A stretch of 63,516 bases of DNA, counting the filler, from Rhabdomonas costata (taxonomy: Eukaryota), in NCBI GenBank assembly GCA_019059605.1. It is 40 parts of 40 records of this genome, joined end to end, with 100 filler letters (N's around TTAATTAATTAA, not from the genome) between each part and the next. Parts side by side here need not be neighbours in the genome. Positions count along the whole stretch, not along the records: positions 22,276 to 23,763 come from JAHMHO010014626.1; 39 more parts are not named here. One strand, written 5' to 3'. Within the stretch, counting starts at the first letter, position 1. Each line of letters starts with the position of its first letter. The notes beneath the pieces were generated by a model, which saw only the letters and a program-made list of their open reading frames with translations, had not been told where the DNA came from and did no database searches. Shown here one piece after another: positions 22,276 through 24,038 of the stretch. A program made the position numbers and the translations under genes.

Positions 22276-22375
22276 TTAAAGGTTTGAAGTGTTTGTGTCT
22301 ACGAACCCAGCTTTGAGCTTGTCTTTTATTAAAGTAATCTTTTGAAAGAATTAGAGATTGAATATGTGTTGTCAT
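22276..22375 (-). CDS. 5' part of a small basic viral protein (truncated by contig end)
   Basis: ATG 9 nt after the ATPase stop; MTTHIQSLILSKDYFNKRQAQSWVRRHKHFKPL, open to the contig edge. Confidence 0.6.
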
Positions 22376-22384
22376 ATACCATTA

Positions 22385-22788
22385 CTACATAAATTTAATT
22401 AAATCTGCAAGTCTCATAATAGAATCAGGTATATTATCATAAATTTCTCTCATAACGATAAAAACATCAATATTTTGTTCATGTTTAAGAAATGTTAACA
22501 ATTTTATTATGTCATCGTATAATTCTATCTTGATGTTTAGAAAAAAGAAATTCTCAAATATAATACATCTTTTTTTTGTGTACTATTTTCATGAAATGAA
22601 TTATCTAAATACATAAAATGTGGTAATTTTAATAAAATACTATCACAACAATTTAAGTATTCAGTATACTTGTTCTCAGCATCTGCTAAATATACAACAT
22701 AAACAAAATCATATACATGTGTTAATAAATGTAGTTTAATGTATCTTGTCTTTCCTGATTTTTTCTTTCCAACCAAGATATAGAACAT
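22385..22788 (-). CDS. Short, degenerate A32/FtsK-like P-loop ATPase with a -1 frameshift at an A8 run
   Basis: Walker A ILVGKKKSGKT. After the A8 run (plus-strand T 22570-22577) the -1 frame continues RCIIFEN (Walker-B position)...LLTFLKHEQNIDVFIVMREIYDNIPDSIMRLADLIKFM*, aligning to A32 motifs GRH.NI.I....Q....IP..IR.N.D. About 134 aa fused. Confidence 0.7.
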
Positions 22789-22789
22789 T

Positions 22790-22809
22790 TAATAAAACTA
22801 TATATTTTA
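22790..22809 (-). promoter_or_regulatory. Conserved upstream motif TAAAATATATAGTTTTATTA next to the ATPase start codon
   Basis: Identical 20-mer also at 23240-23259. Confidence 0.7.
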
Positions 22810-22830
22810 TTTATCTAAATAAACTTTCAA

Positions 22831-23239
22831 TTATAAAAATGTATAAATATGTTGTCTGACATCATTGCATATATTCAGACTTTTCATAAAATCATGTTTG
22901 GCTTGATTTAATTTTTCAAGTCGTTCACGGGTTTCTATATTTTTTTTTCCAACCATGAATTGGTGTAAAACTAAATTGTAATAGAAGAAGACATCTTTAA
23001 AATAATAACGCAAAGTTATATTGTCTACGTAAGGAAATATATTATTCACGATTTTGTCTTTTTTTTTCAGCAATTCTATAAACGTCATTGTTTGCATTCA
23101 CAGAATATTGTTTGTTGTATATTTTGTAATAATGCTTATTCGGGTCCGGATAGTAAAATTTCTTTTTATCATGATGCAAGGATTTATGGGGGAAATTATT
23201 TCGTATGAATTCCTCAGTATCAACCGATGTTATTGTCAT
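22831..23239 (-). CDS. Hypothetical viral protein; ORFs 23239-23042 and 23097-22831 are probably one gene split at an A9 run
   Basis: The two frames overlap across an A9 run (plus-strand T 23059-23067). Removing one A fuses ...YRIAEKK to DKIVNNIF.... Only the first ORF has the conserved upstream motif. Confidence 0.55.
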
Positions 23240-23259
23240 TAATAAAACTATATATTTTA
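23240..23259 (-). promoter_or_regulatory. Conserved upstream motif TAAAATATATAGTTTTATTA directly before the ATG at 23239
   Basis: Identical 20-mer also at 22790-22809; similarity extends about 13 nt further upstream (TTATTTAGA.AAA). Confidence 0.7.
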
Positions 23260-23265
23260 ATTTCT

Positions 23266-23733
23266 CTAAATAATAGCACTAACTTTTTCACCGTGTAAAT
23301 GAAATGAGATTAGAAACGCAAGGCTTCTTTGTCCACAATCTTTTTCAGCGAATGACTCATCACGGTTGGTGTTAGCATTGATGAATTTTTTCTTTGCAAA
23401 GAAAGGGCTAAGTTTATGAATGTCTCTATTATATGTATCATATCCATATAATTTGGGTTTATGGTCTTTGTTCTTAGAAGATTTTATAAAACTTATCCAG
23501 TGTTCACCTTCCTTTGCTTTTGAACTTTTATTATTGATTATAAACATCTGGCCATTTTTTGTGTATTTTGGGAATTTTTCAGCTGAATAAACACCCATAA
23601 ATAAATCGTTGCCAAATATTGCTTTACCAAGTCTGTTTAGTTCTATATTTGTTGTAGTTGCTGAATTATTTAAAACATCATCTATATACATCAAGTTTTT
23701 GTTGTATTCCTGTAGAATTTTGTATTTGTTCAT
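23266..23733 (-). CDS. Adenain-like (clan CE, C5-type) cysteine protease, putative virion maturation protease
   Basis: 155 aa with FMGVYSAEKFP, FIINNKSS..EGEHW (His), YDTYNR (Asp) and EKDCGQRSLAFL (Cys): motif order and spacing typical of adenovirus/Polinton/virophage proteases. Confidence 0.85.
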   Translation of the reverse strand: MNKYKILQEYNKNLMYIDDVLNNSATTTNIELNRLGKAIFGNDLFMGVYSAEKFPKYTKNGQMFIINNKSSKAKEGEHWISFIKSSKNKDHKPKLYGYDTYNRDIHKLSPFFAKKKFINANTNRDESFAEKDCGQRSLAFLISFHLHGEKVSAII

Positions 23734-24038
23734 TTATATACTATTAAATAAGATTTTAGATTANNNNNNNNNNNNNNNNNNNNNNNNNNNNNNNNNNNNN
23801 NNNNNNNTTAATTAATTAANNNNNNNNNNNNNNNNNNNNNNNNNNNNNNNNNNNNNNNNNNNNTGTGGGTGTGTTTGGTGTTTGGTGTATTTTTGAAAGG
23901 TCCAAATCCTGACTTTTTGGTGACACTCTCCCCTCTCACGTTTGAGTTGTCACGGACAAGAAGTGGTGTGTTGTTTCGTTTTATGCTGTCTCGGCATTCC
24001 AACCGAATTGGACACTCTCATACCACCCGTCCACACAG

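Follow-up and report, generated by a model that had tools for sequence, protein, structure and literature searches.

The A32-like packaging ATPases (PF04665), described from Nucleocytoviricota, virophages, polintons and polinton-like viruses, carry their Walker A motif near the N-terminus, as does the small P-loop gene reported here, and they are the best Pfam match of its first part. The order of the hydrophobic and polar motifs past Walker B is presumably similar as well. An adenain-type maturation protease gene accompanies the ATPase gene in such viruses and also lies nearby in the present contig, and in polintons, as in some of the polinton-like viruses, the two proteins form one morphogenetic module, according to the passages of bioRxiv 10.64898/2026.06.19.733378 on which we draw. 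Since both proteins share a morphogenetic module in those viruses, the neighbourhood of our locus fits an A32-like gene. The differences are as evident as the similarities. The PF04665 model has 242 positions, whereas the gene described here has 134 codons and a score below the Pfam cut-off; its Walker B position reads E-N, and K and R stand at the proposed arginine-finger and sensor-glutamine positions. Unlike the described ATPases, it has a second half without matches, no relatives in the collections searched and no capsid gene on its contig.

The gene is also unusual in being spread over two reading frames that meet at a run of eight A residues, an arrangement with parallels among recoded genes. 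Bacterial IS elements and dnaX (A_AAA_AAG) likewise have an A run where two open frames meet, with a heptamer in the register for a -1 shift, as set out in the relevant sections of PMC5009743. Similarly, slippage at an A run joins the frames of potyvirus P3N-PIPO (GAAAAAA), according to the portions of PMC4552492 and PMC5027478 concerned with it, and an A run occupies the corresponding place in our locus. In IS elements, dnaX and P3N-PIPO, relatives share the site as well as the two frames, often together with a stimulator; here, in contrast, we found neither a structure past the run nor any relatives.

The window, which is the whole stretch of DNA that was analysed (positions 1-63516, 63,516 bases), consists of about 40 separate contigs of about 1490 bases, unrelated to one another and joined by linkers of the form N44-TTAATTAATTAA-N44. 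Because the window is a chain of separate contigs, features are not readable across the linkers, and the context of the P-loop gene is taken from positions 22276-23763 alone (Table 1). The remaining contigs of the window have a GC content of 44-59% and longest ORFs of at most 271 codons; being GC-rich and ORF-poor, they look eukaryotic. All of the credible ORFs of the contig that carries the P-loop gene are on the minus strand, and those other than the P-loop gene, including the protease gene, are intact. The P-loop gene is downstream of the protease gene, with two small ORFs and about 480 bases between them, and the contig carries no capsid gene. We interpret the contig as a piece of a virus-like genome that is rich in AT, an interpretation that shares the evenly balanced standing of the favoured explanation, of which it is part. 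The kind of virus is loosely defined: it is AT-rich, and its hosts are probably microbial eukaryotes.

Table 1. Features of the contig that carries the P-loop gene, in coordinates of the window
Feature	Position	Strand	Remarks
Contig carrying the P-loop gene	22276..23763	.	1488 bases, 25.9% GC, sole AT-rich contig in the window
Adenain-like cysteine protease gene, 155 aa	23266..23733	-	Conserved GEHW and CGQR motifs
19-base motif, exact second copy	23240..23258	-	Directly before the ATG of orf65
orf65	23042-23239	-	ORF
A9 run, second frame switch	23059..23067	-	orf65/orf88 handover, 480 bases from the A8 run
orf88	22831-23097	-	ORF
19-base motif AAAATATATAGTTTTATTA	22790..22808	-	One base ahead of the P-loop ORF's start codon (ATG)
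P-loop ORF, 83 codons	22537-22788	-	Walker A loop; begins MFYILVGKKKSGKT
First part, 73 codons up to and including the A8 run	22570..22788	-	Walker A GKKKSGKT at 22747-22770; Pfam Pox_A32 E 0.013
A8 run (T8 on the plus strand)	22570..22577	-	Junction of two open frames; A_AAA_AAA in zero-frame register
Zero-frame tail past the A8 run	22537..22569	-	10 codons (DVLYLRISFF) and TAA
Second part, -1 frame, 61 codons	22388..22570	-	Walker-B-like CIIFEN at 22550-22567; coding-like codon use
TAG TAA double stop closing the second part	22382..22387	-	Sequence
Start of the likely next gene	22277..22375	-	33 codons, truncated by the contig end

The initial annotation of this DNA had proposed that an 83-residue ORF ends early, that the -1 frame after CAA AAA AAA G supplies the missing Walker B position, and that the fused product would have about 134 residues. 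Our analysis bears out this layout in full. The zero frame crosses the run as ...ACA CAA AAA AAA GAT... and reaches its stop 10 codons on. The -1 frame has no stop between 22582 and 22388 (65 codons), gives RCIIFEN... immediately past the run and continues to the TAG TAA double stop, so that the 73 codons of the first part and the 61 of the second add up to 134. The motif GKKKSGKT occupies residues 7-14 of the P-loop ORF and matches the Walker A pattern GxxxxGK[ST]. A T6 run at 22541-22546, which is also within the overlap of the two frames, was considered as the shift site and rejected, because a product shifted at that run would lack the hhhhE stretch.

The two frames are one gene, a conclusion that follows from the rarity of so long an open stretch, the lack of a suitable ATG, the spacing of the genes, codon use, the placing of a 19-base motif and a two-chain fold, all taken together. 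At least 61 open codons downstream were found at none of 5619 positions in shifted sense frames (14 real genes, related contigs), and in 6 of 2000 mononucleotide shuffles of the contig. The single ATG in the frame of the second part leaves 22 codons, which excludes an independent gene of appreciable length initiated at an ATG there. The frame of the second part scored +0.15 bits per codon, with the other five frames negative, on a codon-use score trained on genes of relatives. A stop-neutral version of the score gave +0.027, which is sixth among 23 open stretches of the contig; in relatives, about 14 of 76 open stretches that are non-coding score at least as high, making the codon evidence weak by itself. 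The 19-base motif that precedes the first part is absent before the second.

When the two parts were folded together with ATP and Mg, each as a chain of its own, they scored 0.59, compared with 0.02 for the best of three controls, a result graded as 'weak support'; agreement between runs was at least 84% of contacts, with a pLDDT of at least 71 for the partner. Of the solved complexes used in calibration, 51 of 78 attained the mark for this test, as did 2 of 108 mismatched pairs; at scores up to 0.60, just 5 of the 78 solved complexes attained it, and all 4 passing mismatches (of 180) were in that range. Halves of one domain can pass by resemblance to solved structures, and the present job, in which ligands were included, departs from the calibration.

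It has to be considered whether the second frame is non-coding, which would leave the 83-residue ORF on its own or make it spurious in turn. This reading, which draws on the lack of any database match for the second part and on its marginal stop-neutral codon score, seems to us scarcely credible. It has to contend with the counts in control positions and shuffles, with the two-chain fold, which weakly supports the packing of the halves against each other, and with the 161-base gap that a non-coding second part would leave in a tightly packed contig where the other gaps are 9-42 bases.

The end of the gene is as well marked as its course. Past the TAG TAA, an ATG follows in the same frame 9 bases further on. 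At an hhalign probability of 49% (E 1.7e-4), residues 4-27 of the next ORF align with residues 2-25 of proteins of about 70 aa whose genes lie downstream of the protease gene on related contigs; a BLASTP comparison of the start of this ORF with a related small protein gave no match. The alignment suggests that the ORF is a separate next gene and, judged by the aligned residues, it seems to belong to the family of about 70 aa. Because the double stop is followed by an apparently separate next gene, the small size of the P-loop gene is not an artefact of the contig end. An alternative genetic code, in which TAA and TAG would be read as sense and the gene lengthened, was rejected, as the intergenic stretches are full of both stops in all frames.

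The family of about 70 aa, with the consensus ...DWN.R...KFL..H....KPIH.T..YYRYRI..P, is seen repeatedly on related contigs, downstream of their protease genes, with members at L011 240-663, L002 1141-1359 and L006 1386-1613, sometimes as two tandem copies. Kinship of orf65 to this small-protein family was looked for and is unsupported (hhalign probability 0.3%; BLASTP E 0.022).

The 19-base motif occurs twice in the contig, with each copy embedded in about 30 near-identical bases. It has no other copy in the contig, is absent before orf88 and does not occur in any of the 11 related loci. Most probably, the virus uses it as a promoter or gene-start element.

The assignment of the P-loop protein to a family is less straightforward. 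The initial annotation had called it an A32-like ATPase, and this held in part: the Walker A motif is present, four hydrophobic residues and E-N stand at the place of Walker B, and Pox_A32 is the best Pfam match. The match, however, remains below the cut-off and covers the first half of the gene only. Of two Pfam matches to the first part, Pox_A32 (PF04665) is the better (E 0.013; 15.4 bits, with the gathering cut-off at 22.8 bits; profile positions 17-59 of 242), followed by ATPase_2 (E 0.066); no kinase family is found at E up to 1. The second part matches nothing in Pfam at E up to 1. PHROGs gave only weak matches, all to families of unknown function, NCBIfam gave no match, and tblastn against phages returned only noise. 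Among PDB sequences, the first part has no match and the second has two noise matches.

Among the look-alikes of the first part in the ESM Atlas are a Nucleocytoviricota cluster (0.94) and another cluster (0.93), 12% of whose members carry PF04665, although the Atlas 'recognition' of the first part, at 2271, is under the 2300 mark, so that such high scores are weak evidence and serve as a lead only. The best look-alike of the second part, at 0.79, is not significant.

Relatives of the first part were found neither in IMG/VR nor, at lengths of 45-146 aa, in an index of 5.8 billion proteins; at lengths of 147-2000 aa, the same index yielded 147 candidates, of which none matched with an E value of 10 or less. 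Among 1.84 billion representative proteins, there was no relative of the second part. The back-translated pattern GKKK[ST]GKT occurs at 53 loci in IMG/VR, none of which is A32-like, and a PF04665 search of one of five records gave nothing. AlphaFold2 models of each half alone are all-helix and of low confidence (pLDDT 61 and 50), with no strand-helix pattern.

The Walker B motif of A32 proteins reads hhhhDD or hhhhDE. In our gene, the corresponding position is CIIFEN, with four hydrophobic residues followed by E-N. Past this stretch, LKH would take the place of GRH and R that of the sensor Q, positions which presumably agree with alignments of A32 proteins, and the order of motifs presumably resembles that of A32 proteins. 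At 134 codons, compared with the 242 positions of the PF04665 model, the domain is not full-length. An A32-like identity is plausible, and whether the protein truly belongs to the A32/FtsK-HerA clade is, in our estimate, about evenly poised. With E-N at Walker B, the protein would probably bind ATP and hardly hydrolyse it, and is predicted to be a poor hydrolase.

The protein might instead belong to another small P-loop class, for example one similar to nucleotide kinases, with the adjacent protease a coincidence. Small kinases have an N-terminal Walker A motif and a size near 130-190 aa, all of the evidence on the family of our protein is sub-threshold, and the 11 related contigs give the protease different neighbours and no P-loop gene. 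Against this, Pox_A32 is the top Pfam match with no kinase family at E up to 1, NCBIfam gives nothing, and the order of motifs past the Walker-B-like stretch presumably resembles that of A32 proteins. We consider membership of another class unlikely, while keeping it as a real contender.

The protease gene is more readily placed. It has 30 relatives, with 42-79% identity, all on short contigs. In an alignment of the protease with 14 of these relatives (15 sequences), 12 of the 15 match Pfam Peptidase_C5 (best E 3.1e-5), and a profile of the alignment gives adenain as its top PDB sequence (E 0.11), with the GxHW and CG motifs aligned. From these matches, the protease upstream of the P-loop gene appears to be adenain-like. 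No relatives were found in IMG/VR or in GTDB genomes.

Eleven JGI metagenome loci (L001-L011) contain relatives of the protease and differ from our contig in their other genes; they showed no tblastn match to the parts of the ATPase gene, to orf65 or to orf88, and no Walker A motif. The neighbours of the protease in the related loci include a papain-family protease (E 1.1e-6) and a DUF3627 protein.

Several features of these related contigs deserve mention in their own right. Members of the protease family, of 145-160 aa with the motifs GEHW ... CGQR, were found solely on short AT-rich contigs of 0.5-3.7 kb (ENA, NCBI and JGI), and the family appears to mark a poorly assembled, undescribed group of viruses. 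A gene of the papain family (Peptidase_C1) adjoins the adenain-like protease gene in two contigs (L001 372-1133; L011 1602-2153), and these viruses thus carry two different cysteine proteases. In L003 (1240-3606), a 523-aa ORF, an arginine-rich protein of about 97 aa (MVSSIGVGLGRN...RRRATRGRG) and the protease follow one another, the first two upstream of the protease, and this order is conserved in L004, L005, L007 and L010. By analogy, it recalls the order of capsid protein, core protein and maturation protease. The 523-aa ORF of L003, the putative capsid gene, has no Pfam or PDB match, and nothing in IMG/VR corresponds to it.

We now turn to the break itself, which could be an error, a mutation or a signal. 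The heptamer A_AAA_AAA fits the X_XXY_YYZ slippery register of the zero frame, and an in-register heptamer with a nearby zero-frame stop is also what characterizes a programmed site. The heptamer on its own carries little weight, because any A8 run is in register for two of its three placements. No RNA structure was detected in the 141 bases from the run: their minimum free energy is -16.2 kcal/mol, compared with a shuffle mean of -17.5 (z +0.41), and 122 of 200 shuffles fold as well.

The relevant sections of Atkins et al. 2016 (PMC5009743) do not name A_AAA_AAA with the heptamers on which mammalian ribosomes shift most, and describe it as shifting less than A_AAA_AAG in E. coli; for giant viruses, the one case of frameshifting that those sections name is a release-factor gene. 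There is ample documentation of slippage on A/T runs, to which some viral polymerases are prone, as described in parts of PMC6260861 and PMC4552492.

A second frame switch was identified in the same contig, at the A9 run. The frame of orf65 has 70 open codons ahead of A9 and 8 past it, and that of orf88 has 10 ahead and 78 past; the two ORFs overlap by 56 bases (23042-23097), with the handover exactly at the run. They may be one gene, split in the same way as the ATPase gene. The shifts needed at A8 and A9 are in opposite directions. The contig holds three A runs of at least 8 residues, and two of the three lie within the frame-switch zones, which make up 115 of its 1488 positions (7.7%; P about 0.017). 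Because two of the three long A runs mark frame switches, a general run-length problem, whether in the sequencing or in the DNA itself, is favoured over dedicated signals, being simpler for both switches than two signals would be.

The programmed -1 frameshift that had been suggested for this site consequently gains no positive support, given the lack of a downstream structure and the second switch at A9. The homopolymer error that had been offered as its alternative is at least as likely as originally proposed. Among the possible causes, a run-length error in the assembly comes somewhat short of an even chance; a real indel, meaning a pseudogene or unselected rescue, is appreciably less likely, and programmed recoding is quite improbable. 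Other causes share what is left.

From the single gene, its end and its context as observed, we infer a fold, a family and a cause of the break in the following way. The explanation that we favour overall, and that seems to us as apt to be right as wrong, is that one diverged P-loop NTPase gene is broken at A8 by something other than a designed signal. Both frames encode one gene of 134 codons, for what would be a strongly diverged P-loop NTPase with Walker A at the very start, hhhhE-N about 60 residues on and two further hydrophobic, strand-like segments. This layout would be the minimal core of a packaging ATPase of the A32/FtsK-HerA type, minus the usual C-terminal third. With E-N replacing the acidic pair of Walker B, ATP would probably be bound and scarcely hydrolysed. 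The break would be a miscounted run in a poorly covered 1.5-kb contig, or else a real change of run length.

Two further explanations accept the run length as true. The gene could be a decaying pseudogene of a packaging-ATPase paralogue, perhaps within a virus relic in a host genome, with at most low-level rescue through unselected slippage on the A run. We regard this as the lesser prospect by some way, though a serious one. The motifs look degenerate (E-N for the acidic pair) and the gene is short; it has no relatives, whereas the adjacent protease has 30; its contig comes from an assembly of otherwise GC-rich, ORF-poor, eukaryotic-looking contigs; and another frame switch occurs at the A9 run. 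Decay is harder to reconcile with two parts that are free of stops, save for one shift, far beyond chance, with codon use that is still coding-like, with the intact protease and other ORFs of the contig, and with the neat end of the gene, where a double stop stands just ahead of the next ATG.

Alternatively, the break could be used on purpose, so that a set fraction of messages would yield the 134-residue protein, made by -1 ribosomal frameshifting on A_AAA_AAA or by polymerase slippage on A8, and perhaps the virus does likewise at its other long A runs. The register is right, the zero frame stops 10 codons on while the -1 frame is open to a natural gene end, frames switch at two of the three long A runs, and slippage on A/T runs is well documented in the parts of PMC6260861 and PMC4552492 used here. 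Purposeful use is nevertheless a slim prospect: no stimulatory structure was found past the A8 run, two of the three ways of placing an A8 run would put the heptamer in register anyway, the 83-residue zero-frame product would be only half a nucleotide-binding domain, the two switches require opposite shifts, no relatives were found in which the two-frame layout could be compared, and the release-factor gene is the single case of giant-virus frameshifting named in the sections of PMC5009743 that we draw on.

The most far-reaching version, which we hold to be slimmer still, is that an AT-rich virus infecting a microbial eukaryote maintains two or more genes interrupted by A8 and A9 runs and would obtain the full proteins through polymerase slippage on these runs. 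One of these proteins would be a minimal A32-type core of 134 residues, smaller than any other of its kind and with a Walker B that does not support hydrolysis, which might act as a nucleotide-binding accessory to or regulator of packaging and not as its motor.

Returning to the favoured explanation of one diverged gene with an undesigned break, its practical value at present is one of caution: in a stray contig of 1.5 kb where the frame switches twice, each time at a long A run, gene calls are not trustworthy before the reads have been checked. If the product is real and related to A32, it would indicate a lower size limit for this ATPase core, and it would represent a further copy of a packaging ATPase that has given up catalysis. 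If the breaks at the A runs are real and are read through, they would represent slippage-dependent gene expression in a eukaryotic DNA virus.
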